A stretch of 64,000 nucleotides of DNA from Strigamia acuminata (GCA_949358305.1 OX442314.1:3286001-3350000), one strand, 5' to 3'. Numbered from the stretch's first letter, positions 14,012-49,686 are shown. Notes: a model not told the origin generated them from the sequence alone. Translations and numbers: made by a program.

Positions 14012-14198
14012 AGAAGGATTCGATGCGACGATAGACGATAAAGTAGACGAGAAAGTAGAAGAAGTAAGAGGCGACAACTGTTTTTGGCGACGGGAACGAA
14101 AATCGGGGTAACAAATAGCGCGTGGACGGTTCGGGAAACAAGAGACGATTCGCCGAATAAACACGTGCTACGAAGGTTAGCCGAACTTCGAACGAGAG

Positions 14199-15738: not shown

Positions 15739-16299
15739 TGTTGGTCCTAAGACCAAATTTGTTGTCGATATCAAATGTTTATATACTATATGTTTTGTGT
15801 TCAAACACATTGTATTGATATTTGATCATTTATTTACTGTTTTCTCTATTTGGATTTATTTTCTGCTGTCCAGTATGTAATTCCATACTTTGCTTATGTT
15901 TTACTTAGATGATTTGTTCTTTAATTTAAAACTTAATGTTAATAACTGTCACCAGAGTGCTGTGACACTCTTACCCCGAATCCAAGATGGCAGCGCACAC
16001 AGGTGTGTGCACTTTCACATCTTTCACCTTTGGAAATCCATTTATGTAAGATATGGTTTACTTTTCATTAAACTTTTATGTTTTTAAGTGTTTACCTTCA
16101 CTTTAGAGCACCTTCAGTGCTATTTAAGCGCATATAAGCGACCACAAGTCACGCACTCGCTCGAACCGCATCACGCGCTCGCTCGAATCGCATCACGCGA
16201 TTCTGTTATCGGAATTAACCGTCGCGCATTTGCGACGAGCTTTATTTCACGCTTCCACATCGGTTCATTTGCCGATTATTTGCGCACCACTCACCTACA
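15739..16299 (+). repeat. Copia E 5' LTR
   Basis: Direct repeat of 22354-22914. Confidence 0.97.
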
Positions 16300-17185
16300 G
16301 TGGTAGCAGAGGTCTGGGGACGATCTGCTCTTATTTTTCACCTAATTTTCGGCGTAATTTTCGCGGGATTTGCGATTTTTGCGGCGAAATTCATTTTATT
16401 TTCAGATTTCGCCGATTTCGACGATTTCCGCCCGAATCTTTGCTTCGAAACGTTCGATCGACGTTCTGGACTGCCAGGGCAGTCTATTTCACCATTGCTT
16501 CGTTAATTTTGTCCGAAATTCCGCGGGATTCGCGAATTTCGCGACAAATTTTTGTTTTTTTCAGGTTTTTCGTCAATCTGGATTCACTTCTCCGCTTAGC
16601 ACGTTGCGGCGGATACAACGAGAATCCAATACTAGATTATTGGCCGCTTAGTTCCCCGGTGAACGGCGGTTATCACCGATCTTTTCAAGCGGACGAAGAG
16701 CCTCGAATTTTCGAGAAGAATTCGGACATTGACGTCCGAATTGCGCTTTCTCCAGCTTTTCGAGAAAGCTGCGCCGTGCCTTCATTTGCACGAGGATTGC
16801 ACCCGCGATCGATTCATCTATTTCTCCTTGTGTCGAAATTACTTGTTAGCATTAAGATAATATTTAAGGCTTTTGGGGGACATTTAGCATCGTATTCGCC
16901 CTTCGATCGAATCCGATCAAGCGATTACGTATTCTCCGGTAGTGCTTGTCGTGGTACAAGTGAGGTTTCCCGCGGGCCCAGGTGCACCGATCGGACCCTC
17001 TCAGACTGGCTACCGGAGGTTTTTGAATTCCTTCAGAAGGAATTGCCCAATTTGACGGTTTCCGCCTCGAAAGTGCTTCGCATCGAGTGTTGTGCTTCGT
17101 TTTCGTGCAGTGCTACGGTGTCTCCTGTGTGCCATTTCCCTGAGCCTGTGTTTTCGTCGCGTTGTTGTCAGTTTTCAACGCCACG

Positions 17186-22144: not shown

Positions 22145-22353
22145 CTTTATCGTGACATTCTTAATTTATTTTTTTCCCGATTGCGAGGATCATCGAGTTT
22201 CAGAGGGAATATTCGGGCTTCCGCAGAGTTTTTCAATGATAGTACCCGGCTCGGTGATTCGACATTATTATTTCCCTTTTGATTAATGTTTATACTATAA
22301 TTCTAGTACCCGATTGTATCTTTCCCCGAACATTTAAGATCGAAGGGGGGATT

Positions 22354-22914
22354 TGTTGGTCCTAAGACCAAATTTGTTGTCGATATCAAATGTTTATATA
22401 CTATATGTTTTGTGTTCAAACACATTGTATTGATATTTGATCATTTATTTACTGTTTTCTCTATTTGGATTTATTTTCTGCTGTCCAGTATGTAATTCCA
22501 TACTTTGCTTATGTTTTACTTAGATGATTTGTTCTTTAATTTAAAACTTAATGTTAATAACTGTCACCAGAGTGCTGTGACACTCTTACCCCGAATCCAA
22601 GATGGCAGCGCACACAGGTGTGTGCACTTTCACATCTTTCACCTTTGGAAATCCATTTATGTAAGATATGGTTTACTTTTCATTAAACTTTTATGTTTTT
22701 AAGTGTTTACCTTCACTTTAGAGCACCTTCAGTGCTATTTAAGCGCATATAAGCGACCACAAGTCACGCACTCGCTCGAACCGCATCACGCGCTCGCTCG
22801 AATCGCATCACGCGATTCTGTTATCGGAATTAACCGTCGCGCATTTGCGACGAGCTTTATTTCACGCTTCCACATCGGTTCATTTGCCGATTATTTGCGC
22901 ACCACTCACCTACA
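22354..22914 (+). repeat. Copia E 3' LTR
   Basis: Direct repeat of 15739-16299. Confidence 0.97.
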
Positions 22915-22919
22915 GTTCA

Positions 22920-23123
22920 GACCGAGGGAAGGGATGCGAGACGAATCAGGAATTTCAAGAATCGAGCCAAAGATCACTGCAGCAAAGCCGCGAGCGCTCG
23001 TGATCGACGAAAACAAAGTGGTACCAGCCCACTCGATAAGTTTGGTGACGGTACGAGCGAAGAGTCAGTCAGACGGATTGTTTTACGTAGAAAACAAGCA
23101 CGCGGTGACGGATCGGTTGGAAG
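22920..23123 (+). pseudogene. Gypsy F pol fragment 2 (PR-RT linker)
   Basis: Short stretch between the TSD of E and the TSD of D, same purine/CpG-rich composition as F. Confidence 0.8.
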
Positions 23124-23428
23124 TGTTGAAATTGCTTGTATACTTGTGTTAATTGCATAGTTCTGCAGCAATGGTGTGGAAAATGTCCAAAGTAAAAACA
23201 CAGGTGTTTATAGGTATGAAATCAAACATAGAGTGAGTTTTATTTCTCAAGTCACATGACATGCCCATAGGTATACAACACCATCTTATGGGAATAAAAG
23301 CAAACACACTTGTAAATAGAGCAGCGGCTATTTGTTTAGCCAAATGCAAAAGATAACAAAAGGTCACGATAAATATACAAAGTGTCACAGCTTGACAATA
23401 CGATACATCAGCACACAATATCTCAACA
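23124..23428 (-). repeat. Copia D 3' LTR
   Basis: Direct repeat of 28696-29000. Confidence 0.96.
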
Positions 23429-23446
23429 ATCGGCCCCCTCGTATTA

Positions 23447-26400
23447 TCAAGCGCTCAATACATTCATATCAACCAGAAAACGATTACAGAAATACACCAA
23501 ATCGGTTTTATCCACGGATTTTGTGAAAATATCCGCAAGGTTGCACTTAGTGCCCACGTGTGTAATCTGAAGGTTATCTCTTCTTACTAGCTCCCGAATG
23601 AAGTGATATCGCACGTCGATATGCTTCGTTTTGCGATTCTCGACGTTTGACTTTGTAAAATCAACTGTCGATATGTTATCGCATAACACATGGTGATTGA
23701 ATTTATCCGCTAATTTGGGAACAATTTCGTACAGCACTCTTAGAATCCATATGTAGTCTTTTACTGTTTCAGTAAGAGCTACATATTCTGCCTCCATGGT
23801 TGATAAAGTGACGTTTCGTTGTTTGAACGTTCTCCAATATACGGGTGAATTTCCGAGCAACACAATAGTTCCTCCAACAGAAATACGATCATCTCTGTTG
23901 TTTGCATAGTCGGAATCGCTGTAGCCAACGACCTCGACACGATCATTTGGGAAGAGCATCAATCCAAGGCTCTTTGTTGTCCTGAGGTAACTAAGCAAAT
24001 CCAGCAATGCGATCCAATGGTCCCATCCTGGATTGGACTGAAATTGGCTAAGGATGTTGATGGCATAGGTTAAATCGGGCCTGGTTCTTGATTCAATAAA
24101 TGCCAAACATCCCAGTAGATTCCGGTAGGAAATTTTCTCCATAATCCTAAAGTCTTCGATCGTGTTGGGACATTGTTGTTTGGTGAGAATGGTAGATTTT
24201 ACCATTGGCTGCGATCGAATCTTCACTAACTTCAAGTGGTCGTCGAATCTCAACAAGACTTTATTGATGTAGGTCTTTTGATGTAACACCATCTGCTCTC
24301 TATATGAGGGAAATTCGACGCCTAACAATTTTTTTGTCTGTCCAAGAATGACCAAATCGAATTGTGTTTTGACCATGTTTAACACATTCATGGCATCTTC
24401 ATATTGCTTTCCAAAAACTACAATATCGTCCACGTAGACTATTAAATATGCGATGTTTCCATATTTATAGACGCAGTTACACCAATTTACGTGTTGCAGT
24501 CCGAGTCCAAGCAAAGTGTCCTCCAATTCAATTCCCCATTCACGTCCTGACTGGTGCAGACCGTAAATTGCACGAAGAAGTTTACAGACGTAATTCTCCT
24601 TGCCTTGGCAAACGAAACCCTTTGGCTGGCGCATATAAACAGTTTTGTGCAACTTCGCGTAGAGGTAAGCACACTTCACGTCGGCTTGGATGTAACTCCA
24701 CTTCAACATGCAGACAAGCAACGTGAACATAAATCGAACGATAGAGAAGTCGACTACTGGTGAAAATGTTTCTTCGTACGACTCGCCGTAGACTTGTGAG
24801 AAGCCTTGCGCGACAAGTCTCGCTTTGTAGCGTGCGATTTTCCCCTCATCGTTCTGTTTGGTGGTGTATATCCACTTGCAGCCAATTATCTTGGTGTCTG
24901 GCGGCGGTGGAACCAACTCCCATACCTCACGCTCGTGCATCGTATCAATCTCGTCGCACATCGCTTGATCCCACTGTTGTTTTTCAGGTGCATTGGCGAC
25001 TTGTTCAAAGCGCGTTGGTATAAATACTTCGAGATGATTCGCTTCCAAGTCAACGTCAATGTCATCCGCAGTTACATTCGACTCGAAAGGCTTCTTTTTC
25101 CTTTTGTCGTCAAAAAGGTGTTCCGGAATGCGAAGATTGTGCTCCACACAATAGCGTTTGACCTCCGGAATTGAACGCAGTCTTGGTTTGTCGTATCCCT
25201 CAATTGTATATTCAATGTCCTTCTGCCCTGTTGGTCTCGCCTTCTCGGTCTTTTTCCATACGAGAGCTGGTATGGTCGGAATTGGGTTTGGAAAAACCTG
25301 TCCAGGTTGTTGCAAAATGTTTGGTTGCTGCACTGCTGGTAAGTTGTGTTGCAATGCATCTTCGGGCAGTCTAAACTTCAACCTAAGTGGAGGTAACTCT
25401 TCTCCTTCTTTCTTCTTGATAGGTTGTGGCGGGGGTAGCGGTGGCCTCACATCCTCGTCGGAGTAATATTGACGGTCATTATCGTTGTCCAGATTATCAT
25501 TGAGATTGTCAATGTATGTCGTATATCTCTCCGGTAGGCCCAGCACGCCTTCAACTCCGCGCCTGCTCTCAACGAATTTAACGTCACTGGTCTCAATAAC
25601 TTTTGAAAAATCAGGTAACCAGACTCTGTATCCCTTTGTAATTCTGGAATATCCTAACATAATTCCATGCAGTCCTTTGTTATCGATTTTTCCATCACGT
25701 ACTCGCTTTTGCACAAAACACAGACTTCCAAATTTTCGTAAATGCCGAAGTGATGGTTTGCGGCCATAATATAACTCCATTGGTGTTTTGTCTGAGTTTA
25801 ACTTCGCTATCCTATTCCTGAGGTAGTTGAAAGTTAAAATTGCCTCGCCCCAAAAGCGATGTTCCAGTTGTGCGTCATAAATGAGCGCTCGCATGCCGTT
25901 TGCTAGTGTCTGATTCAATCTTTCAGATACGCCGTTTTGGGCGGGCGTGTACGCATTTGTCCGTTCATGAGCGATCCCTTGTTGGTCAAGATACTCTCCA
26001 AATTTATTGGAGCAAAACTCCATCCCATTGTCCGTGCGGATGGCCAGGATTGATTTTCCCAGTAGTCTCTCAATCCGTTTTGCGTGTTTTTGAAAAATGC
26101 CGAACACTTCATCCTTCTGTTTCATCAGGTAAACCGTGGAATAACGGGAAAAATCATCCGTAATGGTCAGGAAATATCTATTTCCTGAAAGTGTTGGCGT
26201 TGAAAAAGCCCCGCATACATTCATGTGCAAAAGTTCCAACGGTTGCTTCGACCTAATTCCTGGTAAAGATTTATGAGAGATGGCCTTTTTCTTCGCCAGC
26301 GTGCAAACGTCACACTGCGTGATTGGCACGTCCAAAATCGGTAGTCCAACTACTGCATCCCGCTTGCTCATTTCTTGCACGCTTGGGAAGTGGATGTGTC

Positions 26401-27910
26401 CAAGTCTCTCATGCCATAATCTAGCTTCTTCTGGATTGGATGCCTTTTTGGTCGAGCTACTTGGTTCTTGTGTTTGTTGTGTTTGTTGTTCTCCAGTACT
26501 CGCCTTGTTGCTTTCTTTCAACTTCAATTTTTCAATGTCTGGTTTCGAATCACTTGTTTTGACATAATAAAGTCTGTCCTTCTTAACTGCTTCCATCAAT
26601 TGTCGTTTCCATTGTGGATCGTAGATTTTCACTACTCCTGAGCCAATTGCCACTTTGCATCTGGCTTCGTCGATGCAAGGTCCCGACAATAGATTTCTTC
26701 TCAAATCCGGCGCATAATATACCTTTTTCAATGTGATTGGAATTGTGTCATTTCCCACCACACACATTACACACACATCTCCTACTCCTTGGATTTGTAT
26801 CAAAGTCTTTTTATCTGCTTGGCTAATGGTGCCTTTCATTTCTTGGAAATTTACGAATTGATTCCTATCCTTACAGAAATGCCCAGTGGCCCCGGTATCA
26901 TAGATCCAACAACTGCTGGTTGCGCCGCACTGCAGCATTTCCTCTTCACTCAATTCGGTAAGGAAGCCAACATTCATCATCTCCGTGTCCAATTCTTCGA
27001 CAGTATTCGTGTTCTGGCTATTAGCTGGTGTGAGTTGGACTGTGCAATCCCTCGCCCAGTGTCCTGGCTGATTGCATCGGAAACACGGCCCCCGTGGTGA
27101 TGATCCGGTGGTGTTTCCTCGAAAATTTCTTGTGTTTTTGTTTCCACGATAATTCGATCGTCCAGCTCTTTGTCCTCCTCCAAACCCACGATTATTCTGG
27201 CTACTGTTCCCTTGTTGCTGTTGTTGCTGGAACTTTGGTGTGTTTTTGTTACTCTTCGTGTTGGAGTTGTTTGGCCCCATGCTGAAGGCATCGATAACTG
27301 ACCCCTGGCCAGAATCCCGCCTCTGTTGCGCAAGTCTGCTTTCTTCGGCCACTAACTCCACTTCCACCTTTTCCAGTGTAAAGTCTTTGTCATCCCATCT
27401 GTATATGCTCTGCACAATCGATTGAAACTCCTGTGGCAAATAACGAATCAACTGGAAGGCTTTATACAGATTGTCCAACTCGTGTTTAACGTCCGCTAAT
27501 TTCTTCGCGGCATTCCTAATTTTAGCGGCAAAAATCCCAATTGTTTCTGTGGTTGGATCATACTTAAGGCTGAAAAATTCATCCAATAGACGGATTATGC
27601 GTGCTCTGGATACCGGCTCAAAATTCGTTTTCAAGGTGATCCACGCCGTCTTGGCATCTTCAATCCCGTTGAGCAGCTCGTGGTACTGCTCCTCGATTGA
27701 ATAGTAAATCAAACTAAAAGCTCTTCCTTTTCGCAGCTGATAGTCGGATCGATCTCGCCATGACGCTCCAGGTGCTAGTGCTTCCTCTGTTCCATCTGTG
27801 AACGCCCAACAACCGTGGTGCATCAACAGAACCTTAATCTGTTGCTTCCAGCCGTCATAATTTGTGCGGTTCAACAACGTGACTTTTCTGTCCAATTTGT
27901 CCGAATCCAT
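23447..27910 (-). CDS. Copia D polyprotein, 1487 aa
   Basis: CFRCNQPGHWARDC, YDTGATGH, WHERLGH..CDVC, VYVDD, YSDSDY; first integrase Asp reads Asn (LHMNVCG). Confidence 0.94.
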   Translation of the reverse strand: MDSDKLDRKVTLLNRTNYDGWKQQIKVLLMHHGCWAFTDGTEEALAPGASWRDRSDYQLRKGRAFSLIYYSIEEQYHELLNGIEDAKTAWITLKTNFEPVSRARIIRLLDEFFSLKYDPTTETIGIFAAKIRNAAKKLADVKHELDNLYKAFQLIRYLPQEFQSIVQSIYRWDDKDFTLEKVEVELVAEESRLAQQRRDSGQGSVIDAFSMGPNNSNTKSNKNTPKFQQQQQQGNSSQNNRGFGGGQRAGRSNYRGNKNTRNFRGNTTGSSPRGPCFRCNQPGHWARDCTVQLTPANSQNTNTVEELDTEMMNVGFLTELSEEEMLQCGATSSCWIYDTGATGHFCKDRNQFVNFQEMKGTISQADKKTLIQIQGVGDVCVMCVVGNDTIPITLKKVYYAPDLRRNLLSGPCIDEARCKVAIGSGVVKIYDPQWKRQLMEAVKKDRLYYVKTSDSKPDIEKLKLKESNKASTGEQQTQQTQEPSSSTKKASNPEEARLWHERLGHIHFPSVQEMSKRDAVVGLPILDVPITQCDVCTLAKKKAISHKSLPGIRSKQPLELLHMNVCGAFSTPTLSGNRYFLTITDDFSRYSTVYLMKQKDEVFGIFQKHAKRIERLLGKSILAIRTDNGMEFCSNKFGEYLDQQGIAHERTNAYTPAQNGVSERLNQTLANGMRALIYDAQLEHRFWGEAILTFNYLRNRIAKLNSDKTPMELYYGRKPSLRHLRKFGSLCFVQKRVRDGKIDNKGLHGIMLGYSRITKGYRVWLPDFSKVIETSDVKFVESRRGVEGVLGLPERYTTYIDNLNDNLDNDNDRQYYSDEDVRPPLPPPQPIKKKEGEELPPLRLKFRLPEDALQHNLPAVQQPNILQQPGQVFPNPIPTIPALVWKKTEKARPTGQKDIEYTIEGYDKPRLRSIPEVKRYCVEHNLRIPEHLFDDKRKKKPFESNVTADDIDVDLEANHLEVFIPTRFEQVANAPEKQQWDQAMCDEIDTMHEREVWELVPPPPDTKIIGCKWIYTTKQNDEGKIARYKARLVAQGFSQVYGESYEETFSPVVDFSIVRFMFTLLVCMLKWSYIQADVKCAYLYAKLHKTVYMRQPKGFVCQGKENYVCKLLRAIYGLHQSGREWGIELEDTLLGLGLQHVNWCNCVYKYGNIAYLIVYVDDIVVFGKQYEDAMNVLNMVKTQFDLVILGQTKKLLGVEFPSYREQMVLHQKTYINKVLLRFDDHLKLVKIRSQPMVKSTILTKQQCPNTIEDFRIMEKISYRNLLGCLAFIESRTRPDLTYAINILSQFQSNPGWDHWIALLDLLSYLRTTKSLGLMLFPNDRVEVVGYSDSDYANNRDDRISVGGTIVLLGNSPVYWRTFKQRNVTLSTMEAEYVALTETVKDYIWILRVLYEIVPKLADKFNHHVLCDNISTVDFTKSNVENRKTKHIDVRYHFIRELVRRDNLQITHVGTKCNLADIFTKSVDKTDLVYFCNRFLVDMNVLSA
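25148..25258 (-). other. Divergent MBD-like domain in Copia D
   Basis: WKKTEKARPTGQKDIEYTIEGYDKPRLRSIPEVKRYC at the same position as in A, B, E, G; keeps W, R, D, RLRS and the EV..YC helix. Confidence 0.65.
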
Positions 27911-28683
27911 CCTGATTTACGATAGTAAACGACTCGAACTTGGTTTCACACACGGCCCGAACACTTGTTTCCCCCAAAAAACACTTTCTGTACTGGTAAA
28001 TCGCAACTAGGTGCAGTGTTGCGAGGTTAGTTCGCTCTTAAACTAAGTTAGTAAATCCTGTTACAACACTAAGCTAACAATATATCGAAAATTCAACAAA
28101 AATTCAGTAAAATGTTCGAAAGTGGTGTTTTCCTGACGTTGTCTAGCTGTAGTTCTAGTTGAATTACACTTCCCGTGTATTTTGCAGCTCAAAATTGTCT
28201 TTTCTCGTTGATTCTCTCGTCTTGTGTCGATTCCGCAAATTGTTCATTAAATTCCAGGTCGTTCCCGTGAAAATCCTTTTCCTCCGCTTGTATTATCCTG
28301 GATTCCCGTTCACACTTCGCGTGTGGTTGATGGGAATTTGCGCCGTCGTATAATCCACGTCGAGACGTTTTTTTTTAACCCAAAAATAACGACACGTCGT
28401 CGTTACGTATCGGCGCTTTCCACTCCCGAAATAAATTCCCGAAAACAGGAATAAACAAAAGAAAGAATTAATAATTGTATATAGTTCGAACCAATTATTG
28501 TTCCTGTGCTCCGTGGCGTCTAGTTGTCGCCTCCAAAGTCGTGGAATCCAGGCACAAACACAAATTGATGACATCCATCATGGGCGCCGCCATTTTGGAT
28601 GAAAATGAGGAAATTTTCCCTGCTGGCCTCAAATGACTCAAACTGCTCCAAAATCACACTGGACACTTTCCCTGCTTTATGTA

Positions 28684-28694
28684 GGCCCATAACC
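28684..28694 (-). promoter_or_regulatory. PBS of Copia D (internal/half tRNA-iMet type)
   Basis: GGTTATGGGCC is complementary to the anticodon arm GGCCCATAACC of tRNA-iMet, as in Drosophila copia. Confidence 0.85.
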
Positions 28695-28695
28695 T

Positions 28696-29000
28696 TGTTG
28701 AAATTGCTTGTATACTTGTGTTAATTGCATATTTCTGCAGCAATGGTGTGGAAAATGTCCAAAGTAAAAACACAGGTGTTTACAGGTATGAAATCAAACA
28801 TAGAGTGAGTTTTATTTCTCAAGTCACATGACATGCCCATAGGTATACAACGCCACCTTATGGGAATAAAAGCAAACACACTTGTAAATAGAGCAGCGGC
28901 TATTTGTTTAGCCAAATGCAAAAGATAACAAAAGGTCACGATAAATATACAAAGTGTCACAGCTTGACAATACGATACATCAGCACACAATATCTCAACA
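28696..29000 (-). repeat. Copia D 5' LTR
   Basis: Direct repeat of 23124-23428. Confidence 0.96.
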
Positions 29001-29005: not shown

Positions 29006-29765
29006 TACCGGAAGGCCTGATCGAAGTGAAGAACGAGCGGGCAACGATGCCGATAATCAACAACGGACCAGAAGAAGTACGAGTCACACGAGGTCGAAAG
29101 CTTGGGCATGTTGAAATCACCGAAGAAGAACCGTCGTTGCACCAGGTACAAGTCAAGAAAGTCGCGACGATCGAGGCAAGTTCGAGGATGCGAATAACGG
29201 CCGACGAAATTAATTTGGGCAAGTCAGTGACGCCGGAAGAAAAGGAGATCGTACTGACGATGATTAACGACGAATTTCGAGACTGTTTCGCAACGAATTT
29301 GGAGGAGGTCGGATGTTTTCCAGATCTCAAGATGGATATCGAAGTTACGACGACGAGGCCAACGAATTTGCGGCGATACCAGTATTCAGCAGCGCAGCAA
29401 AAAGAGATTGACAAGATGGTCGCCGAGTTGGAAGGAGCAGGATTCGTGACGCGATCAAAGAGTCCATTCAACAGTCCGATCGTGATGGTGCGCAAGAAAA
29501 CCGGCGAATGGAGAATTTGTATTGATTTCAGATCGCTCAACGAAATAACGGTGAAGGAACACTTTCCGTGCCCCAGGATGGATGAGTTACTCGACGGGAC
29601 GCACGAATGGAGAGTCTTCCTAGTGTTCGATTTGGCGTCGGGTTACTACCAGATCGAATTGACGGCTGAAGCGCAAGAGAAGACAGCATTTTCGACAATG
29701 AACGGCAAATATCAGTTTGTGCGGATGCCGTTTGGGTTGATAAACGCGCCGTTTGTTTTCAATCG
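29006..29765 (+). pseudogene. Gypsy F pol fragment 3 (RT N-terminal half)
   Basis: SPFNSPIVMVRKKTGEWRICIDFRSLN, DLASGYYQI, KTAF, MPFGLINAP; cut by element I. Confidence 0.93.
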
Positions 29766-31667
29766 TGTGACGGTTTACAATGGCTATAAATGCCTATTTT
29801 CTTAGAAAGAAGCGCTGTTGCGCCATTATCATGATATCTCGAAGATATTCTGTGTAAAACTGATAAATGTCTGGAATAAAGTTATTTATGATGTTTCAAA
29901 TACAAAGATGTTCGTTTATTAAGAATAAACACTCATTCCTACTTGATATCAAAGGATTCCGGCCGAATCACGAAGAGTCGTCTGCTAAAACCGCATTTGT
30001 CAATGCGCAATGTTGCCACAAGATGGCGCGATTACGATTTAGCGGCAAATTCAAGATATGAATATAAAACATGTAAATAAATATAAAACTATATTTACTA
30101 GAACGAAACGAAGCTTTGTGAACATTAATATAAAGATATATTAATGTCTTTTGATGTTAAATACATTATAACTTCCATTTTCTGCGGGATAGAACATTTG
30201 GTGATCAATCGATCAACCGATCGATCTGATTGGTGGATCCATTTCCGGCCCTGGGTATCCAGTTCCGGTTGTGGTGAGAATTAGCATAATGCTCCTCCGT
30301 ATCCACTTCCGGTGATACGGGATTGGAGGGATTCGTGGAACCCATGTTCCAATTGGATGACTGGATTAATCCTTAATCCAGTCAGGTTATATAAACCCAA
30401 ACAACCGGCCATTCGGCAGCTCTGTTTGATTATTTTCTGTTTGGTATTGTTACTTAAGAAATATGATTCGTTGTTCACGTAAAAAACCTTTTGGTTCTTT
30501 GTTGATTTATTCGCAAAGAACCGTTGCATGATTCTACAGAATCATGCCACCGCCGGCAATTGAAGTCGAAGTGCTGGGATTATTATGTTGCATAAATGTT
30601 ACAGTCTACGGTTGCGACGCCGAAGGAGAACCCGCCGTTGTGCAATTCAGTATCCTCCGGACAGGACCAAGTTGTCTTTTTCGGTATGAACGTATTCCGT
30701 TACCACGAGTAGCATCGGTATTGTTGAGAATCGGTTCCTTCACCTGATGGTGCCAAAGCAGTCTGTTTTACAGTAACCACGAGTAGCACCAAGTGTTTGG
30801 CAAGCTGATTCTCATGGTATTCGATGCCAAAGCAGTCGGTCTATTATTAGTACCGCGAGAGATAAAACTGCTGTGCGGAGCCGCGAGCTATCGACCCCTG
30901 TGTACGTGGTACCGTCAACCACTCGATGGACGACCGTGCTGCGACGCCGGGGACGCTTGATACCGTTCTGCATGGCAAGGCGTATATTCTAATCGATGGC
31001 AATTGTGTGTTGCGACGGGAAGCTTAATCTTCATTTTATTTATAACAGCAAAACTTAAACTCGACAACCAGTTGGACCAAAATCAAGTCAGAAGACTTAA
31101 TCTCATATTGAACTCAATATAACCGATAAGTTGACGACAACTTATTCCCGAAATATCTAAATAAGAATTCACAACGATATGAATTAAATATAATTCATAA
31201 GTGGAATATTGATAAGTAAATGAATACATTTACTTACACCAATATCCTCCCAAAGTTGTGGCGGTGCAGACAAAGTCAACCGCAATGCTCAGATCATTCG
31301 ATTTATCGACGTGCGATAGTTTACACAGCGAACCAAGGAAACCAGCGAAGCCGTATCGGACTCCAGGACACAGCCATCCGGCTTAAGATGACATCTATAA
31401 TCAGGTCGAGCGATGGGGAAACCGCTCCCATATTCCAGACCCGTAGTGATATTATTCTAGGGCCAGTTGGCCAATTCTTTGTATAGTTTAATAGCTGATT
31501 TAACTTGCCAAATGTCGGCATTAGTCCTATGTATAATTTAGCCTTGATATTATTGTTTACCAACAATAAACTGTCTTGTATTTATCTCGTATTGTATTCA
31601 CTGTTTATTTATTGCGATCTCTTCCCGGTACCATTGTTAAATGGGAGTTGTGGTCGTCACCGTCACA
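29766..31667 (+). repeat. Element I 5' LTR (1902 bp)
   Basis: Direct repeat of 37574-39475, one mismatch noticed; TATATAAA at about 30388. Confidence 0.96.
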
Positions 31668-32520
31668 CGTGGAGGTCCCACCGAGATAGGTTGCAATTAA
31701 ATTCAATTGAATTGCAAACAGTGAACTTTTGAGATAAATATTAACTAAACAGATTTAGTTAAAAATAGACAAACAGCTTTTCAGTTTTACTTTTCATCCG
31801 AGAAGTTAAACTGATGAAATAGAAATGTGTAGTAGATTTTCCTTCATTATTTTCGTTTGAAGAGTTTAGGGATTTCAAAGACTACCACCTAATCTCACAC
31901 GTGGAGGTCCCACCGAGATTAGGTTGCAATTAAATTCGATTGAATTGCAACAGTGAATATTGGAGATAAATATTTAACTAAAAGATTTAAGTTAAAAATA
32001 GACAGATTAAATTTTCAGTTTATATTTCCATGTGAAGAAGTTAAACTGATGAAATAGAAATACGTAGTAGATTTTCCTTCATTATTTTCGTTTGAAGATT
32101 TTAGGGATTTCAAAGACTACCACCTAATCTCACACGTGGAGGTCCCACCGAGATTAGGTTGCAATTAAATTCGATAGAATTGTAAAAGTGAATTTTGAGA
32201 TAAATATTTAACTAAAAGATTTAGTTAAAAAACAGACAAGTTTCAAACCATGTTTATTTTCTTGAGAAAAAACCAAAACAGTCCTTTAACTAGGAATTTC
32301 GGAAGTTATAGACCTATCACACGATCACTGAAATAGGTTGCAAATTAATTCGATCGAATTGCAAAAGCGAATCTTGAATCCGATATTAACTAAAAAATTT
32401 TAGTTAAAACAGACAAATAGATTTTCAGTTTATATTTTCATGTGAAAAGTTAAACTGACGAAATGGAAACGTTTAGTGAACTCTCTTTACTATTTTCGTT
32501 CGACAATTTAAGGAATACGA
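31663..32520 (+). repeat. Tandem about 233-bp repeats carrying PBS copies
   Basis: TCACACG-TGGAGGTCCCACCGAGAT with PBS starting at 31670, 31902 and 32137, plus a degenerate fourth unit from about 32317; the 18-mer is complementary to the tRNA-Gln 3' end. Confidence 0.88.
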
Positions 32521-35079
32521 AGTATTTTAAATAAGAAATCAAAAAAGTTTCGAGTGAAATAAGAATACAGATATTTTTTTCGAAGTTTGTTTTATTTCGA
32601 AAAGCTAAAAACATACAAGTTTAGAAGGCGGACTTCTTACGAATTTATCTTTCCACCTGAAAAGTTAAAACGAAGAAAACACCGCAACTATTTGGAAATA
32701 TTTACAAGAAATTAAGTTTCTTGTAACTGTACGTCGACGCCGATAGCCAGCGACCACGCGCCGTAGCAATACGCGTCGATCTCCGTATCAAACGCAGCCG
32801 GGAAGCTACTCAAACCTTCAACGCAAGGTGCGAACGAATGCTTGGAAATTATGGCGGACAACAGATAAAAGACAGCGGAGAAATGTTACAGAAGGTTCGT
32901 AGAGATTTATTTAAGTGTCGCGAACTAATTTTTCCACTGCCATCGGTACCAAAGATAATTTAGTTGTTGGAGAAAAACAACACACTCCATTTCGCAGAAA
33001 AGATTTGCAAATCGAAATGAATATTACCTTTATTTGAAGGAATTAACTATTTTCACAAAAAGTACATTTTTTCCTTCGGGACAATGGAAATTAAGAAAAT
33101 ATAAAATGGCGGCGAATGAAGTTGCCGACCACGTAGAATAGTATTTTTTACATTGAAAGTTACGAATCACGATAAACGCTTTCCCTCGGAAAAGTAAAAG
33201 GATTTCATTCAATCTTTCCTTTCGGAAATTTAACAGTGTTTTAAGTTTCCAACGATATTTGGGTCTCCCAAATTTTGAGAATTTCTAAATGAAATTTAGC
33301 TGTGTGAAAAACAACGAATATTTTTAGTAATCTAATCGGACATTTTCCCACATGATTTCTTAAAACCGGAATAACAAATCCATTTGTGGCTATGAACTTT
33401 GCCACATGAAATATTTACGGAGCGAATATTTTTTGATTGGATTGAAGCTTTAAAATCAGATAGCTGACTTAAACGAAGAAAATAAGTTTCAAAGTAATTA
33501 TTTTTCTTTCGGAAAAATCAAATAAATCACCGCTGATGAAAAGTTGTATTTTTCCATTCGAAAAACTAAGAATTGCACAAGATTTATCTTCTATTTTGAA
33601 CATAGATTTTATTCGGAAAAGGAAAGATTCTAGATACATTATTTTTCTCTAAAAATTAAGAATTTAGTCAATTTTCCTAAAGGTTAATGGAATGTCATCA
33701 TATATTTCGTTCGTAATTTACGTGTTAAAGTTTAATCAGAAAAACGATTGAATATGTTTTATTTGCGATAAGTAAAAGAAAGGTTCTTTAAAAATGGAAT
33801 TTCGATGCAAATCCCACAGTAAAGGGAATGTTATGTGTGAGCAATTAACGAAAAGTTGGAATAACTTCATTTTATTTCATTCAAAAGTAGTTGTGAAAAA
33901 TCAATTTCAAATATTTTTCAAAGAAAAATTATTTTTATCGGAAAAAAGTAATTTACATGTCCTCGCGCGGACCGAGTAGTAAACTGCTTAATTGTGACAT
34001 CGATACTGTTATTGTGTCACGTGTTATACGGAATTCCAAACCAGTGAATTACGAATTTTGGCGCGATAGGAATAAAAGTTTGACAGTGAAAGTTCTCCAG
34101 ATTTGTCTTTTCATTTGAAAAGTTCAAATTGAGGAAATGCTGCAGCAGATGAAGGTATTTACGACAATTGCGATCTAAATATTCTTTCATTAGAAAGATA
34201 AAAGATTTCTACAAAACATCTCGTTATTAGAGATAAGGGGGACGAAAATTATTAAAACGAATAATCAAAGACACGTCCTTCGTAAATACCGCAAAGGAAT
34301 AACCAATTGTGAAAACAATTGTCCGCTCAAGAAAATTGGAATTTAGCTAGATATTTTCTTTCGAAAAATCAAAGCAATTGTCATCAAAAAGAAAGATTTG
34401 ATGAATAATTTTTACCCAAAAGTCTAAAGGATTGTCGAATAGTTTTCTCCCGAAAAACAAGTACACATTTGTACCAATAACTTTATCGTTTAAAGTGAAA
34501 TTTCGAATATTTTCTTTTGGAAGATTAGAGAATTAGATAATTTTTCTCGCAAAACAAATTTAAAGAATTTTAACGAATTTTTATTTGTTAAAAAAAATTG
34601 TTAAAAAAGGGGGAGATGGATGGTGAAAATTTATTTTTTACACTCGAAAAATGGAATTTAGCCCCGAAAAAGTAAAGACTTGGTCAAATTATTTTTCCTA
34701 TTGGAAATGAATACACAATGTTGGGAATCGAAAATAGATTTCAATTACAAAGGAATGATTATGTGAACGATAATTGAATAAGAATAAGAAAAATTGAGAG
34801 TTTGAGAAAACTTTATTAAAGTTGTGGTTGTAACGATATCACACACTAACGGAATAATTAAAAGAAAAATATTTTTTGAAGAAAAGTTATTTAATTATTT
34901 GGATTGGTAAAAATCCCAAAGTTCAAGAAGATTGAAGTAAGTTTATTTTATTTTCATTTGAAAAATACAATATTTTACGAATGTCTTCCCGAAGGAATTT
35001 TATTTTATCGGTAAAATTGAATCTCGAAGGGAACGGACTTAGTAGAGAACTACTAAATAGATGTAACGTCCTTTATACC

Positions 35080-35177
35080 ATTGGCCGACACTAACATCCG
35101 CCAATCAGAAGCCGGGAGATCTAGGAATCCCCAGCCCCCTGCTATTAAAGGAGGACCAGATCAGACACTGATCATTC
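35080..35177 (+). promoter_or_regulatory. Putative internal Pol II promoter of the orphan ORF
   Basis: ATTGG 35080, CCAAT 35101, TATTAAA 35143 and Inr-like TCATTC 35172 (29 bp after the TATA-like box) in a local GC-richer island. Confidence 0.5.
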
Positions 35178-35437
35178 GTTTCCAGACCAGACCCGGAGAC
35201 GTGTTCCAGAGCCATCTTGACCACGCCGTCCCGATTTCAGTCACGATTCGAATTTTGTGTGCCGTGTAACCTGCAAAGCTACACGTGTTAAACAAACGCG
35301 AAGTGTAATTTTACTGTGTTAACGTAAAGTTTAGAAGTGTTTCTTGTGGAAAAAGTGTATTATATTGTTCTTTTAAAGGGCGTATATTCGTGTTCTTTAT
35401 AATTAAAGAATTAAAATCGTCAGATTTTGAATTTAGT

Positions 35438-36961
35438 ATGGCTCAAAAACCATTGAAAATGGTCGATCTCGAGGGAATTAATAAACGAACAAACTTAAAT
35501 TTAAGTTATGTACCACTTGGCGATCAAACAGAAAAGATTCCTGATCATTTTACTCTGTATTGTAATCGTCATGGACTGGATAAAACCAAGTTTAAAAATA
35601 TAACCGAAGCTTCGGACTATGTAACAGCTAGGAACTGGCGAGATCGTACCCAATCTCAATCTTCGCATCGAGATCCAGTACGGAATCCACAAACATCCAG
35701 TCGAAACTTAGTGAATCAAGATTCTCATACTATGTTTCAAACATCCAGTAGTGGATCTAACTTTGAAAAGTTTAAACCACCTAATTCGGTAGATAAGGGG
35801 GAAAAGAATTATAAACCTAATAATTCTCGTCCAGAGAGTTCCTTAACTAACCAGTCGGTTGTTCAGAACAAATTAAAACTCTATTACAATCGAGATCAGC
35901 TGATTTCAGTTCGATATACTAATCTAGCTGAAGCACAACGATATGTGGCTAGCCTTCATCTGCCGATTAACCTACCACTATCAAAAGAATTGGGAACGGT
36001 AAACAAAAGTTTTGGGCCATCAATACCAGTGCAAAAAGAAGATATTCGGGCTGCAAACAAACATTTGCGGTCACCGAATCCTCGCGATGGATTTACGAAT
36101 CTTTTTTCCAACTATACGAGCGAGAAAAGTGGTTTACCTACTCCAAACAAATGTTTGCAGTCACTTAACTTACAACAAAGCATCCGATCGCCGAACACAA
36201 ACTCATGTTTGCGGACAAATGATTTGTCCACCAAAAAGAAGAGTCTTCAGCCAAGACAATTCTATCTAACGCCCATTTCAAAACGGAAAAAGGTCCAACA
36301 CAATAATAAGAGGGACTTTAAACCTAAAAAAGAAAGTTTTTTGACTAACCCACGGGAGATTCGGTATCAATTCGAACAGTATTGTAAACAATACCAGTTA
36401 AATTCAGCTGAATTTAATAGTATAGACGAAGCGCAACAATTTGTATTTCGAAGTCAATACCGTACTCAACGAATAAACCCAGACCCAGTCGTCAATCTGA
36501 CGGAGATACAACAATTTGCGCCTGGAAAGCAACCCTGCAATATCCAGAAGAATTCATCTCAACGAGAGGAATTAAGAACTTCAAAAAAGCGTTTTCGGTC
36601 ACCAAGTCCAGCTGGTGATGAAGAAACTTCAAGTACAAACCAACATGTTCAAAAACTGACTGAACACCCAGGTTTCCAATCATCAGTTCCACGACTTAGA
36701 GTCAAATATAGATCCCCTCGTTTGTTGCGGGATTTCACAATTCCAAATATGGGTCCCTTCCACGTATGGTTTTCCAATGAGGGTCCCATTCATGTATGGT
36801 TTTCCAGAGATGACCTAAAACAAAAAGTTGGGTCGTCACGGTCATTTACACTGCCAAGTGAGTACACTGTGTGTAACTGCCCAAAGAAAAACGTCGAAAG
36901 AAATCAGTACAGCAGGCTGAGAGATCTCGGAAATTTGCAAATATGCGAGCTCAATATTTAG
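35438..36961 (+). CDS. Orphan 507-aa basic protein with three copies of a 29-aa module
   Basis: Long open frame in AT-rich DNA, ATG 35438; ungapped internal repeats at about 35537, 35861 and 36359; no retroelement motif recognised. Confidence 0.65.
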   Translation: MAQKPLKMVDLEGINKRTNLNLSYVPLGDQTEKIPDHFTLYCNRHGLDKTKFKNITEASDYVTARNWRDRTQSQSSHRDPVRNPQTSSRNLVNQDSHTMFQTSSSGSNFEKFKPPNSVDKGEKNYKPNNSRPESSLTNQSVVQNKLKLYYNRDQLISVRYTNLAEAQRYVASLHLPINLPLSKELGTVNKSFGPSIPVQKEDIRAANKHLRSPNPRDGFTNLFSNYTSEKSGLPTPNKCLQSLNLQQSIRSPNTNSCLRTNDLSTKKKSLQPRQFYLTPISKRKKVQHNNKRDFKPKKESFLTNPREIRYQFEQYCKQYQLNSAEFNSIDEAQQFVFRSQYRTQRINPDPVVNLTEIQQFAPGKQPCNIQKNSSQREELRTSKKRFRSPSPAGDEETSSTNQHVQKLTEHPGFQSSVPRLRVKYRSPRLLRDFTIPNMGPFHVWFSNEGPIHVWFSRDDLKQKVGSSRSFTLPSEYTVCNCPKKNVERNQYSRLRDLGNLQICELNI

Positions 36962-37573
36962 CAAAGAATCATGTTGATTAACATGATATGATACACAAAG
37001 ATTCCCCGATTATAGTGTAAACAGAAAATCCTCTTCTAAAAATCATGACCTCTCTTCTAAAGAAAAGGGGGACAAAATATAAAAGTTAGAATTAACAAAA
37101 TTTTGAAAAGTAATGCTACATTATTAAGACAACTAGTTTAATTAAATTAGTCAATTGTACAAAGAATACCAAGTGACTCCGGTCATGACAATTAAGGGGG
37201 ACAATTATGATTTCTTAATTGTCAACTCTTATCATCCGAAAGCTATTATTGTATATTTATAGCGATACATCTGACTAGGCATATGAAATAAATAATTTGT
37301 GATAACACAAATGATGACTTTATGTATGACGAAGGTTTCTTCAAAAGAAGACTTGGAAATAAATTCTCAACTTGAATTTGTACTATTAGAAAAGTTATTT
37401 CGGCAGAAAATCAGAACTTAGATAATTCAATTAGTTTACGTAAATTCAAATTCAGAATTGGAAGTCACAATATCTCCAAGATACATCAAGTCCGAAAAAA
37501 TAGCATTTATGCTAATTCAGAGAATAACGAAAATTCTATAAAATTTTATATAATTGTGTTATTAAGGGGGATG

Positions 37574-39475
37574 TGTGACGGTTTACAATGGCTATAAATG
37601 CCTATTTTCTTAGAAAGAAGCGCTGTTGCGCCATTATCATGATATCTCGAAGATATTCTGTGTAAAACTGATAAATGTCTGGAATAAAGTTATTTATGAT
37701 GTTTCAAATACAAAGATGTTCGTTTATTAAGAATAAACACTCATTCCTACTTGATATCAAAGGATTCCGGCCGAATCACGAAGAGTCGTCTGCTAAAACC
37801 GCATTTGTCAATGCGCAATGTTGCCACAAGATGGCGCGATTACGATTTAGCGGCAAATTCAAGATATGAATATAAAACATGTAAATAAATATAAAACTAT
37901 ATTTACTAGAACGAAACGAAGCTTTGTGAACATTAATATAAAGATATATTAATGTCTTTTGATGTTAAATACATTATAACTTCCATTTTCTGCGGGATAG
38001 AACATTTGGTGATCAATCGATCAACCGATCGATCTGATTGGTGGATCCATTTCCGGCCCTGGGTATCCAGTTCCGGTTGTGGTGAGAATTAGCATAATGC
38101 TCCTCCGTATCCACTTCCGGTGATACGGGATTGGAGGGATTCGTGGAACCCATGTTCCAATTGGATGACTGGATTAATCCTTAATCCAGTCAGGTTATAT
38201 AAACCCAAACAACCGGCCATTCGGCAGCTCTGTTTGATTATTTTCTGTTTGGTATTGTTACTTAAGAAATATGATTCGTTGTTCACGTAAAAAACCTTTT
38301 GGTTCTTTGTTGATTTATTCGCAAAGAACCGTTGCATGATTCTACAGAATCATGCCACCGCCGGCAATTGAAGTCGAAGTGCTGGGATTATTATGTTGCA
38401 TAAATGTTACAGTCTACGGTTGCGACGCCGAAGGAGAACCCGCCGTTGTGCAATTCAGTATCCTCCGGACAGGACCAAGTTGTCTTTTTCGGTATGAACG
38501 TATTCCGTTACCACGAGTAGCATCGGTATTGTTGAGAATCGGTTCCTTCACCTGATGGTGCCAAAGCAGTCTGTTTAACAGTAACCACGAGTAGCACCAA
38601 GTGTTTGGCAAGCTGATTCTCATGGTATTCGATGCCAAAGCAGTCGGTCTATTATTAGTACCGCGAGAGATAAAACTGCTGTGCGGAGCCGCGAGCTATC
38701 GACCCCTGTGTACGTGGTACCGTCAACCACTCGATGGACGACCGTGCTGCGACGCCGGGGACGCTTGATACCGTTCTGCATGGCAAGGCGTATATTCTAA
38801 TCGATGGCAATTGTGTGTTGCGACGGGAAGCTTAATCTTCATTTTATTTATAACAGCAAAACTTAAACTCGACAACCAGTTGGACCAAAATCAAGTCAGA
38901 AGACTTAATCTCATATTGAACTCAATATAACCGATAAGTTGACGACAACTTATTCCCGAAATATCTAAATAAGAATTCACAACGATATGAATTAAATATA
39001 ATTCATAAGTGGAATATTGATAAGTAAATGAATACATTTACTTACACCAATATCCTCCCAAAGTTGTGGCGGTGCAGACAAAGTCAACCGCAATGCTCAG
39101 ATCATTCGATTTATCGACGTGCGATAGTTTACACAGCGAACCAAGGAAACCAGCGAAGCCGTATCGGACTCCAGGACACAGCCATCCGGCTTAAGATGAC
39201 ATCTATAATCAGGTCGAGCGATGGGGAAACCGCTCCCATATTCCAGACCCGTAGTGATATTATTCTAGGGCCAGTTGGCCAATTCTTTGTATAGTTTAAT
39301 AGCTGATTTAACTTGCCAAATGTCGGCATTAGTCCTATGTATAATTTAGCCTTGATATTATTGTTTACCAACAATAAACTGTCTTGTATTTATCTCGTAT
39401 TGTATTCACTGTTTATTTATTGCGATCTCTTCCCGGTACCATTGTTAAATGGGAGTTGTGGTCGTCACCGTCACA
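37574..39475 (+). repeat. Element I 3' LTR
   Basis: Direct repeat of 29766-31667. Confidence 0.96.
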
Positions 39476-39479
39476 ATCG

Positions 39480-43060: not shown

Positions 43061-46028
43061 GAATCGGGGGTCGACCGACTCGAACCGGGGGTCGACCGAC
43101 TCGAACCGGGGGTCGACCGACTCGAACCGGGGGTCGACCGACTCGAACCGGGGGTCGACCGACTCGAACCGGGGGTCGACCGACTCGAACCGGGGGTCGA
43201 CCGACTCGAACCGGGGGTCGACCGACTCGAACCGGGGGTCGACCGACTCGAACCGGGGGTCGACCGACTCGAACCGGGGGTCGACCGACTCGAACCGGGG
43301 GTCGACCGACTCGAACCGGGGGTCGACCGACTCGAACCGGGGGTCGACCGACTCGAACCGGGGGTCGACCGACTCGAACCGGGGGGTCGACCGACTCGAA
43401 CCGGGGGGTCGACCGACTCGAACCGGGGGGTCGACCGACTCGAACCGGGGGGTCGACCGACTCGAACCGGGGGGTCGACCGACTCGAACCGGGGGTCGAC
43501 CGAATCGAACCGGGGGGTCGACCGACTCGAACCGGGGGGTCGACCGACTCGAACCGGGGGGTCGACCGCCTCGAACCGGGGGGTCGACCGCCTCGAACCG
43601 GGGGGTCGACCGACTCGAACCGGGGGGTCGACCGACTCGAACCGGGGGTCGACCGACTCGAACCGGGGGGTCGACCGACTCGAACCGGGGGTCGACCGAC
43701 TCGAACCGGGGGTCGACCGACTCGAACCGGGGGTCGACCGACTCGAACCGGGGGTCGACCGACTCGAACCGGGGGTCGACCGACTCGAACCGGGGGTCGA
43801 CCGACTCGAACCGGGGGTCGACCGACTCGAACCGGGGGTCGACCGACTCGAACCGGGGGTCGACCGACTCGAACCGGGGGTCGACCGACTCGAACCGGGG
43901 GTCGACCGACTCGAACCGGGGGTCGACCGACTCGAACCGGGGGTCGACCGACTCGAACCGGGGGTCGACCGACTCGAACCGGGGGTCGACCGACTCGAAC
44001 CGGGGGTCGACCGACTCGAACCGGGGGTCGACCGACTCGAACCGGGGGTCGACCGACTCGAACCGGGGGTCGACCGACTCGAACCGGGGGTCGACCGACT
44101 CGAACCGGGGGTCGACCGACTCGAACCGGGGGTCGACCGACTCGAACCGGGGGTCGACCGACTCGAACCGGGGGTCGACCGACTCGAACCGGGGGTCGAC
44201 CGACTCGAACCGGGGGTCGACCGACTCGAACCGGGGGTCGACCGACTCGAACCGGGGGTCGACCGACTCGAACCGGGGGTCGACCGACTCGAACCGGGGG
44301 TCGACCGACTCGAACCGGGGGTCGACCGACTCGAACCGGGGGTCGACCGACTCGAACCGGGGGTCGACCGACTCGAACCGGGGGTCGACCGACTCGAACC
44401 GGGGGTCGACCGACTCGAACCGGGGGTCGACCGACTCGAACCGGGGGTCGACCGACTCGAACCGGGGGTCGACCGACTCGAACCGGGGGTCGACCGACTC
44501 GAACCGGGGGTCGACCGACTCGAACCGGGGGTCGACCGACTCGAACCGGGGGTCGACCGACTCGAACCGGGGGTCGACCGACTCGAACCGGGGGTCGACC
44601 GACTCGAACCGGGGGTCGACCGACTCGAACCGGGGGTCGACCGACTCGAACCGGGGGTCGACCGACTCGAACCGGGGGTCGACCGACTCGAACCGGGGGT
44701 CGACCGACTCGAACCGGGGGTCGACCGACTCGAACCGGGGGTCGACCGACTCGAACCGGGGGTCGACCGACTCGAACCGGGGGTCGACCGACTCGAACCG
44801 GGGGTCGACCGACTCGAACCGGGGGTCGACCGACTCGAACCGGGGGTCGACCGACTCGAACCGGGGGTCGACCGACTCGAACCGGGGGTCGACCGACTCG
44901 AACCGGGGGTCGACCGACTCGAACCGGGGGTCGACCGACTCGAACCGGGGGTCGACCGACTCGAACCGGGGGTCGACCGACTCGAACCGGGGGTCGACCG
45001 ACTCGAACCGGGGGGTCGACCGACTCGAACCGGGGGGTCGACCGAATCGAACCGGGGGGTCGACCGACTCGAACCGGGGGGTCGACCGACTCGAACCGGG
45101 GGTCGACCGACTCGAACCGGGGGGTCGACCGACTCGAACCGGGGGGTCGACCGACTCGAACCGGGGGGTCGACCGACTCGAACCGGGGGGTCGACCGACT
45201 CGAACCGGGGGGTCGACCGACTCGAACCGGGGGGTCGACCGACTCGAACCGGGGGGTCGACCGACTCGAACCGGGGGGTCGACCGACTCGAACCGGGGGT
45301 CGACCGACTCGAACCGGGGGTCGACCGACTCGAACCGGGGGTCGACCGACTCGAACCGGGGGTCGACCGACTCGAACCGGGGGTCGACCGACTCGAACCG
45401 GGGGTCGACCGACTCGAACCGGGGGTCGACCGACTCGAACCGGGGGTCGACCGACTCGAACCGGGGGTCGACCGACTCGAACCGGGGGTCGACCGACTCG
45501 AACCGGGGGTCGACCGACTCGAACCGGGGGTCGACCGACTCGAACCGGGGGTCGACCGACTCGAACCGGGGGTCGACCGACTCGAACCGGGGGTCGACCG
45601 ACTCGAACCGGGGGTCGACCGACTCGAACCGGGGGTCGACCGACTCGAACCGGGGGTCGACCGACTCGAACCGGGGGTCGACCGACTCGAACCGGGGGTC
45701 GACCGACTCGAACCGGGGGTCGACCGACTCGAACCGGGGGTCGACCGACTCGAACCGGGGGTCGACCGACTCGAACCGGGGGTCGACCGACTCGAACCGG
45801 GGGTCGACCGACTCGAACCGGGGGTCGACCGACTCGAACCGGGGGTCGACCGACTCGAACCGGGGGTCGACCGACTCGAACCGGGGGTCGACCGACTCGA
45901 ACCGGGGGTCGACCGACTCGAACCGGGGGTCGACCGACTCGAACCGGGGGTCGACCGACTCGAACCGGGGGTCGACCGACTCGAACCGGGGGTCGACCAA
46001 CTCGAATCGGGGGTGGACCAACTCGAAT
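43061..46028. repeat. 21-bp CpG-rich tandem array 2, about 140 copies, with 22-bp (G6) variant blocks
   Basis: Same unit as array 1; G6 units cluster at about 43379-43670 and 45009-45280. Confidence 0.99.
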
Positions 46029-46345
46029 CTGTTGTTTATCGATGCCAAACAGTCCTCCGTACTTGTTCTGCGCATTTCTAGTGTTTTCCTGCATCAAGCA
46101 GTGTTTTGTATTTATTTAGACTTTAAGTTATTATTTAGCACTGGGCATAATGCTGCCCCTATCAGTATTATATAAGTTTATTCGCGAATTTGCGATAAAT
46201 TGTGCCACAGAAGTTGAAAACAGACATGTTGGGACAATTATGGCGCGCGTTACGTATGGAAGCGGGAATCGTAGAACGAGTAGAAAGCGACGACGAGGAT
46301 GACGACGACAAAGAAGAAGAAGAAGAAAAGAACGATTTAGAAAAC
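46029..46345 (+). repeat. Duplicated junction fragments (copies of about 10134-10306 and 14311-14459)
   Basis: Near-identical to the right flank of array 1, fused at AAATT to a piece of Gypsy F gag. Confidence 0.92.
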
Positions 46346-49300: not shown

Positions 49301-49686
49301 TTAGCTGGTGTGAGTTGGACTGTGCAATCCCTCGCCCAGTGTCCTGGCTGATTGCATCGGAAACACGGCCCCCGTGGTGATGATCCGGTGGTGTTTCCTC
49401 GAAAATTTCTTGTGTTTTTGTTTCCACGATAGTTCGATCGTCCAGCTCTTTGTCCTCCTCCAAACCCACGATTATTCTGGCTACTGTTCCCTTGTTGCTG
49501 TTGTTGCTGGAACTTTGGTGTGTTTTCGTTACTCTTCGTGTTGGAGTTGTTTGGCCCCATGCTGAAGGCATCGATAACTGACCCCTGGCCAGAATCCTGC
49601 CTCTGTTGCGCAAGTCTGCCTTCTTCGGCCACTAACTCCACTTCCACCTTTTTCAGTGTAAAGTCTTTGTCATCCCATCTGTATAT
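46345..49686 (-). pseudogene. Copia D2 polyprotein fragment (gag C-part to RT, MBD-like at about 47428-47538)
   Basis: ORF 46603-49647 is almost identical to the D protein. Confidence 0.93.

Follow-up and report, generated by a model that had tools for sequence, protein, structure and literature searches.

An apparently young LTR element of Strigamia acuminata without detectable gag or pol, and its probable retained accessory gene

Non-autonomous families of long terminal repeat (LTR) retrotransposons usually shed all coding sequence or retain Gag only, and the large retrotransposon derivatives (LARDs) have a conserved, structured internal RNA as a feature. Here we compare these and related systems with an element of Strigamia acuminata at positions 29766-39475 of a 64,000-nucleotide stretch of one strand (GCA_949358305.1 OX442314.1:3286001-3350000), hereafter the window, with positions counted from its first letter. 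The definition of LARDs, originally described in 2004, is taken from PMC6696364 and PMC6431247. The element resembles a LARD in its size above 4 kb (here 9,710 nt), its two LTRs, primer-binding site (PBS), polypurine tract (PPT) and target-site duplication, its lack of gag and pol, its apparently many copies and its predicted structured leader. It differs in having an intact open reading frame (ORF) of 507 codons with a predicted promoter, three copies of the PBS and an animal host. It works like a LARD, yet LARDs are non-coding and this interior codes, with the frame kept across subtypes. A first-pass annotation, generated by a model from the DNA alone, had called it a LARD-like animal element; the non-autonomous, multi-copy part of that description stands, while LARD membership was overstated for a coding interior.

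Mouse ETn and VL30 are, like mammalian MaLR, non-autonomous animal LTR families; the LTRs of all three are far shorter than those described here, and these families differ further in having known endogenous retrovirus helpers and no repeated-module cargo. MaLR resembles the present element as a non-autonomous animal LTR family that a helper bearing similar LTRs mobilises (PMC5131818). Together with LARD calls in honey bee, which were automated and set aside without inspection (PMC4028053), and with zebrafish Bik-1 and Bik-2 and chicken ENS-1 (PMC12067270), MaLR indicates that the annotation overstated the rarity of LARD-type elements in animals. Bik-1, Bik-2 and ENS-1 are also animal, multi-copy, pol-less LTR elements with one long ORF and a partner acting in trans; unlike the present element, they are endogenous retroviruses with Gag-derived ORFs, whereas the ORF here is placed towards the 3' end, is not detectably Gag and is mostly coil. 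TRIMs, or terminal-repeat retrotransposons in miniature, represent a further animal precedent (PMC6934838). In the literature covered, mostly by listings and with Repbase, Dfam and subscription journals outside its scope, we found no arthropod family lacking both gag and pol that has an orphan gene towards its 3' end or a PBS in more than one copy.

We moderately favour the reading that this element is a recent copy of a family without gag and pol, with a probable Ty3/Gypsy-type helper, which has retained an orphan accessory gene (the cargo gene) with a predicted internal promoter. Among the components of this reading, the LTR-element architecture is virtually certain, and a non-autonomous, multi-copy family is highly likely.

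The architecture is complete. Two plus-strand LTRs of 1,902 nt (5' LTR, 29766-31667; 3' LTR, 37574-39475) enclose an interior of 5,906 nt. Their termini are TGTGACGG...CCGTCACA, with TG...CA ends and 8-nt inverted ends, and the pair differs at a single position (T/A at 30769). The duplication ATCG lies on both flanks (29762-29765 and 39476-39479). The PBS (31670-31687, plus strand), 2 nt past the 5' LTR, is complementary at 18/18 positions to the 3' end of tRNA-Gln(UUG), and its 18-mer corresponds to the 3' end, CCA included, of the tRNA-Gln(TTG) gene at five of eight loci run through ARAGORN. The PPT, AAGGGGGA, occupies 37564-37571 (plus strand), 2 nt ahead of the 3' LTR. A young 9.7-kb element with 1.9-kb LTRs, duplication, PBS and PPT, as first annotated, is therefore what we find. 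The 5' LTR contains TATAAA at 30390 and AATAAA at 31565, positions that suggest a long R region, as well as two structured RNA windows (30816-30965, z -3.1; 31116-31265, z -5.1).

The insertion disrupts the reverse transcriptase (RT) domain of an older Gypsy pol, with RVT_1 profile positions 1-131 on the left and 147-205 on the right. The LTRs of this host Gypsy (13742-41965) are 257 nt long and 97.7% identical, and three insertions are nested within it: the studied element and two Copia elements, at 15739-22916 (identical LTRs) and 23124-29000 (LTRs 98.7% identical). Since the host LTRs are 97.7% identical and two Copia elements lie inside the host as well, the studied insertion is younger than the host Gypsy. 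One mismatch per 1,902 nt likewise points to a recent insertion, although it yields no usable date.

No RT, RNase H, integrase, protease or Gag was found in the element by motif, tblastn or Pfam searches, the last covering the long ORF and 15 short ORFs. A six-frame scan of the interior gave no YxDD, CCHC, HHCC or DTG motif (GPF occurred once per strand and TDGS once), and the short ORFs matched nothing in Pfam better than E 0.11. The first-pass annotation had described the interior as free of RT, integrase and gag and had proposed TBLASTN for decayed pol; this description was upheld, and tblastn of the interior with 11 Gag/Pol proteins from neighbouring elements reached a best E of 0.043, with no remnant.

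Evidence for a family is indirect, coming from contigs of sequencing runs rather than from separate insertion sites. Three of six listed runs (X1, X2 and X3, from two studies), one of which may be the source of the window itself, contain 52-56% of the element's words, and every one of the 30 bins into which LTR and interior were divided is covered by contigs from these three. No RNA run was among the holders listed, and a further run, X6, yielded short diverged pieces only. Dominant interior contigs had depths of about 8,000-10,500 in X1, 14,000-25,000 in X2 and 207-352 in X3, and rare diverged contigs had depths of 67-199 in X1 and 27-108 in X3. As a control, depth in X1 exceeded that in X3 only 2.6-fold for the host Gypsy flank, compared with about 26- to 43-fold for the dominant interior contigs, which supports a real difference in abundance between these samples. 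Pieces of the non-coding interior were about 99% like the window (3/305 and 3/293 nt different), and among the X1 and X2 matches listed no long loose end fell within the interior. Because the whole interior is covered in three runs and the dominant subtype is far deeper than the rare variants, we conclude that the element belongs to a family and is neither a one-off deletion nor a unique capture. The first-pass annotation had named two results that would speak against it, namely an interior of unique captured DNA and other copies carrying gag-pol; the interior was instead deep in three runs, and no gag-pol block appeared in the deep contigs among the matches listed.

The same data bear on whether the element arose as a single internal deletion within an autonomous element, or through faulty assembly. 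In X1 the ORF variant of the window is in the minority (depth 199 versus about 9,000), but the duplication is clean and lies in a foreign RT gene, the LTRs carry a mismatch between them, and the entire non-coding interior is deep across runs of two studies. We regard this explanation as extremely improbable.

Depth within the LTR was uneven. LTR bins were several-fold deeper than interior bins, while the first 400 nt (29766-30195) were two- to three-fold shallower, with loose contig ends near 30196-30203. This pattern hints at solo LTRs or at relatives sharing part of the LTR, and the shallow segment may reflect a related family whose LTR starts differently and which is possibly the helper. 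Four X3 contigs diverge from the element at 31695, just beyond the PBS, and could also be the helper, as judged on 30 letters only.

The cargo ORF (35438-36961, plus strand) encodes 507 amino acids with an isoelectric point (pI) of 9.9; when the region was shuffled 300 times, stop-free frames reached at most 150 codons. The ORF begins 3,751 nt downstream of the first PBS rather than directly after the PBS leader, and is preceded by a predicted internal promoter and 5' leader (35070-35437, plus strand). Promoter-like elements there include two CCAAT boxes (ATTGG at 35080 and CCAAT at 35101), TATTAAA at 35143 and an initiator (Inr)-like TCATTC at 35172, about 30 nt from TATTAAA. The 264 nt ahead of the ORF are free of ATG, a length equalled in 19/5,000 shuffles. 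Just upstream of TATTAAA, the 10-mer GGGGATTCCT (minus strand, 35123-35132) occurs once in the window; we take it to be kappaB-like, and a literature search on the 10-mer gave no confirmation among the papers listed. Within the final domain of the ORF, a 10-codon tandem duplication is present at 36745-36815 (GPFHVWFSNE / GPIHVWFSRD).

A complete-looking predicted promoter of its own would fit capture of a host gene together with its promoter by an LTR-mediated route (a pseudo-LTR retrocopy) and later amplification, a mechanism reported across animals (PMC5131818). We consider such an origin clearly unlikely, as no parent-like protein was found in 1.84 billion representatives or in word-index searches. 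In addition, a 35-nt PPT-like segment is common to the ORF (35791-35824) and the non-coding interior (34231-34265) at 83% identity, which suggests that the ORF has long resided in the element.

Comparison of subtypes suggests that the cargo gene has been kept open while changing quickly. The dominant subtype differs from the window at 58/837 nt in three pieces covering the first 320 codons of the ORF and a few leader bases, compared with 4/357 nt in the ORF tail and 6/598 nt in non-coding DNA, so that the first 320 codons are about seven-fold more divergent than other interior DNA (Fisher p 3e-11). Despite this 7% divergence, all three indels of the dominant subtype before codon 482 (-90, -3 and +30 nt) keep the frame, and one-base insertions lie immediately upstream of the ATG (35431 and 35436). 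A rare subtype at 82% identity likewise keeps the frame, its sole indels over 378 nt being a -1/+1 pair, and no stops occurred among the 30 + 5 changed codons examined. The ORF's frame is thus kept while its sequence diverges fast; either diversifying selection or an exchange of the module region among subtypes could account for this. It is fairly likely that the ORF is translated and useful to the family.

Several observations weigh against the reading of a family with a useful retained gene. The depth of a contig does not give its copy number, and for X1 and X2 the type of library is not recorded; as a rough reading, taking the shallowest contigs as single copies would put the count at about 100 in X1 and about 5-12 in X3. 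None of the listed pieces runs across the whole interior and the element is not bridged by any contig, which also leaves some room for an assembly artefact. Changed codons show no synonymous excess (10/30 synonymous against a neutral expectation of about 27%, p=0.42; 3/8 within the modules), in counts that use only the best-supported matches among at least 58 differences. The dominant subtype carries a +1 insertion at codon 483 in all three runs, after which an alternative frame is open for 31 codons, and the last 25 codons are not shared. Neither a homolog nor a fold points to a cargo function in sequence, profile, language-model or fold searches, and the five neighbouring elements that were examined all differ from the present one in PBS and LTR ends.

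The neutral substitution ratio, the frameshift in the most abundant subtype and the lack of homologs in every library searched would also be expected if the element were a true LARD, mobile by cis signals only, with the ORF a decaying passenger. The frame-keeping indels in both subtypes, the changed codons free of stops and the rarity in shuffles of an ATG-free leader of this length all argue against decay, and we consider a passenger ORF rather unlikely. The annotation's view that the element maintains its cargo ORF therefore holds for the frame but finds no support as amino-acid constraint. A retained accessory gene remains the most likely identity of the cargo.

The cargo protein contains three related, predicted helical modules (module 1, 35513-35650; module 2, 35822-35974; module 3, 36320-36472; all plus strand), with every pairwise score above all 1,000 shuffles. 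Module 1 is predicted to form a helix-loop-helix (mean pLDDT, the predicted local distance difference test, 79) in a model that rests on a three-row alignment. The full-length model is weak (pLDDT 40), with mostly low-confidence coil, and coil is predicted for about three quarters of the protein, without a long helical block. Its composition is basic, and it carries repeated RSP motifs and a KRKK stretch that we presume to be a nuclear signal.

Searches with the full protein found no homologs among 3,274 near-length candidates or 362 shorter proteins, and the module profile found none among 166 longer proteins. In HMMER, the sole match among the 1.84 billion representatives (P0002, E 5.6e-4) was rejected as a repeat protein matching the linker at 24-26%. 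The ESM Atlas gave nothing usable for the cargo protein or residues 295-348, and the best PDB sequence profile match (E 0.022) was unrelated. Module 1, the only module searched by fold, had no Foldseek match in the PDB, a best E of 4.8 in BFVD, and a background-level best match by VIA-align to an E3-binding-type helical domain (Z 3.6, root-mean-square deviation 1.9, 33 aligned). A likeness by eye to the hybrid-binding domain of RNase H1 or to the tail of a methyl-CpG-binding domain (MBD) was dropped, having no Pfam match. Rfam returned two chance-level matches on the element, and the module profile matched nothing further in the rest of the window or in 98 metagenome PBS loci.

It is also conceivable that the ORF is an unrecognisable Gag, such that the element would supply its own particle in the manner of Bik-1 or TR-GAG elements. 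The ORF of Bik-1 was an orphan until structure prediction revealed Gag (PMC12067270), and the basic composition, the RSP motifs and a full-length model too weak to exclude a fold are compatible with a similar case here. Against this, the ORF lies 3.7 kb beyond the PBS and behind its own predicted promoter, which is not the gag position, lacks a long helical block, and matches neither CCHC nor a Gag profile. We find a hidden Gag very unlikely, and return to a retained accessory gene of another kind, for which a nuclear regulatory role is tentative.

The non-coding DNA carries features that the first-pass annotation did not contain: three intact and one decayed PBS module, five extra purine tracts and the promoter-like region of the ORF. 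The leader (31663-32516, plus strand), a predicted priming and packaging region, is built from a unit of about 200-235 nt that occurs four times in tandem, each time opening with TCACACG, and the series starts in the final letters of the 5' LTR. Intact PBS copies occur at 31670, 31902 and 32137, and the PBS core of unit 4 is deleted. Unit 2 is predicted to form a closed multi-branch RNA fold (z -2.75, beating 198/200 shuffles). A folding scan of 39 150-nt windows from 31716 onward gave one window at z -4.3 and one at z -2.5. Beyond the leader, an AT-rich non-coding interior (32517-35069, plus strand) contains PPT-like tracts at 34235 and 34607 as well as internal repeats that have decayed, and the 3' non-coding region (36962-37563, plus strand) holds PPT-like tracts at 37065 and 37194. 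The interior has six occurrences of AAGGGGG, among them the true PPT, compared with 2,000 shuffles that averaged 0.12 occurrences and never exceeded 2.

Duplications of 4 bp are typical of many invertebrate Gypsy clades and are not diagnostic. The 4-bp duplication here, with 2-nt spacers at both ends, compares with 5 bp in the three Copia neighbours checked, and together with this link to Gypsy it makes a Gypsy-type helper likely. The PBS pattern had no matches in viral contigs and 99 in metagenomes, and none of the 98 loci compared matches the element over at least 30 nt or matches the cargo. In 12 of these loci, picked for long frames, 16 ORFs were scanned, and the loci comprised Bel/Pao (5/12), Gypsy (3/12), gammaretrovirus-like (1/12) and unrelated (1/12) sequences and two without a match. 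Since the tRNA-Gln PBS occurs in Bel/Pao, Gypsy and gammaretrovirus-like loci, it cannot name the helper. Mobilisation in trans by a Gypsy-type helper, as first annotated, is not shown by these results; it draws on the duplication length, while the PBS also occurs in Bel/Pao and the five neighbours do not match. The Bel/Pao elements with an exact tRNA-Gln PBS are on metagenome contigs L007, L023, L028, L035 and L066, and three AT-rich contigs (L015, L017 and L051) carry clusters of 6-10 tRNA genes, including a Gln gene with an encoded CCA end, that look like large-virus tRNA clusters.

These features suggest a possible life cycle. The LTR would drive a full-length RNA, and the structured leader with its repeated primer-site modules would allow packaging into helper Gag particles. 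Helper RT would prime at tRNA-Gln and at the purine tract, perhaps at the internal tracts as well, and helper integrase would trim 2 nt per end, leaving the 4-bp duplication. The cargo gene, in the env/ORF3 position, would be expressed from the predicted internal promoter, and its product would most likely be a nuclear nucleic-acid- or chromatin-binding factor favouring the family's expression or RNA handling.

Young LTR elements are nested throughout the window. Copia elements at 2580-7028 (minus strand), 59338-63999 (minus strand) and 17144-22144 (plus strand) have an MBD between integrase and RT (PF01429 E-values 8e-7, 3e-10 and 1e-3, respectively); two clear the Pfam cut-off and the third falls just below it. 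A fourth Copia of this kind (2-1690, plus strand) is 83% identical to the element at 59338-63999, and the MBD Copia elements of the window represent several distinct families with long open frames. CopiaMBD has been reported only from a centipede and two spiders (PMC6673714), a distribution that makes an arthropod host likely. Arrays of a 21-nt, 71% GC unit lie at 8556-10132 (75 copies) and 43061-46027 (140 copies) with 99% matches; the two share flanks on both sides, suggesting a satellite-carrying mobile element. A second copy (99.6%) of the Copia at 23124-29000 lies at 46345-49686 and 57522-58854, interrupted by a Gypsy (51471-56890) with a 700-nt leader, a 1.3-kb AT-rich 3' region and a different PBS, which we take to be tRNA-Ala-like.

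To our knowledge, few element-encoded regulators exist in animals. Dropping gag and pol while keeping an orphan that diverges fast under a separate promoter implies that this gene earns its keep. The family offers a natural test, since its close subtypes differ chiefly in the cargo and their abundance varies strongly from sample to sample. For a parasite of a parasite, the triple PBS and extra purine tracts would be cis-level tricks open to testing; should the ORF prove to be a passenger, the element would belong to an ordinary LARD-like family in an animal. A bolder version, which we consider doubtful, is that the cargo acts in an arms race as a counter-silencing or RNA-handling factor specific to the family and binds repeated motifs of the element, such that a swap of the module region might have expanded one subtype roughly ten-fold in some host samples and not others, with the extra PBS modules outcompeting helper RNA. 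Extra 3' ORFs are established in LTR elements, and Ogre and bdelloid LTR elements carry extra ORFs for lineage-specific orphan proteins (PMC6431247). Functional analogues of the cargo may be CERV of Cer1 (PMC10309623) and VANC of VANDAL (PMC6719617), each a lineage-specific orphan beside cis signals, with VANC acting via short repeated motifs in its own element (PMC6719617). All of these elements, unlike the present one, encode their own enzymes, and the comparison is one of analogy, as neither sequence nor fold was found to connect them with the cargo.

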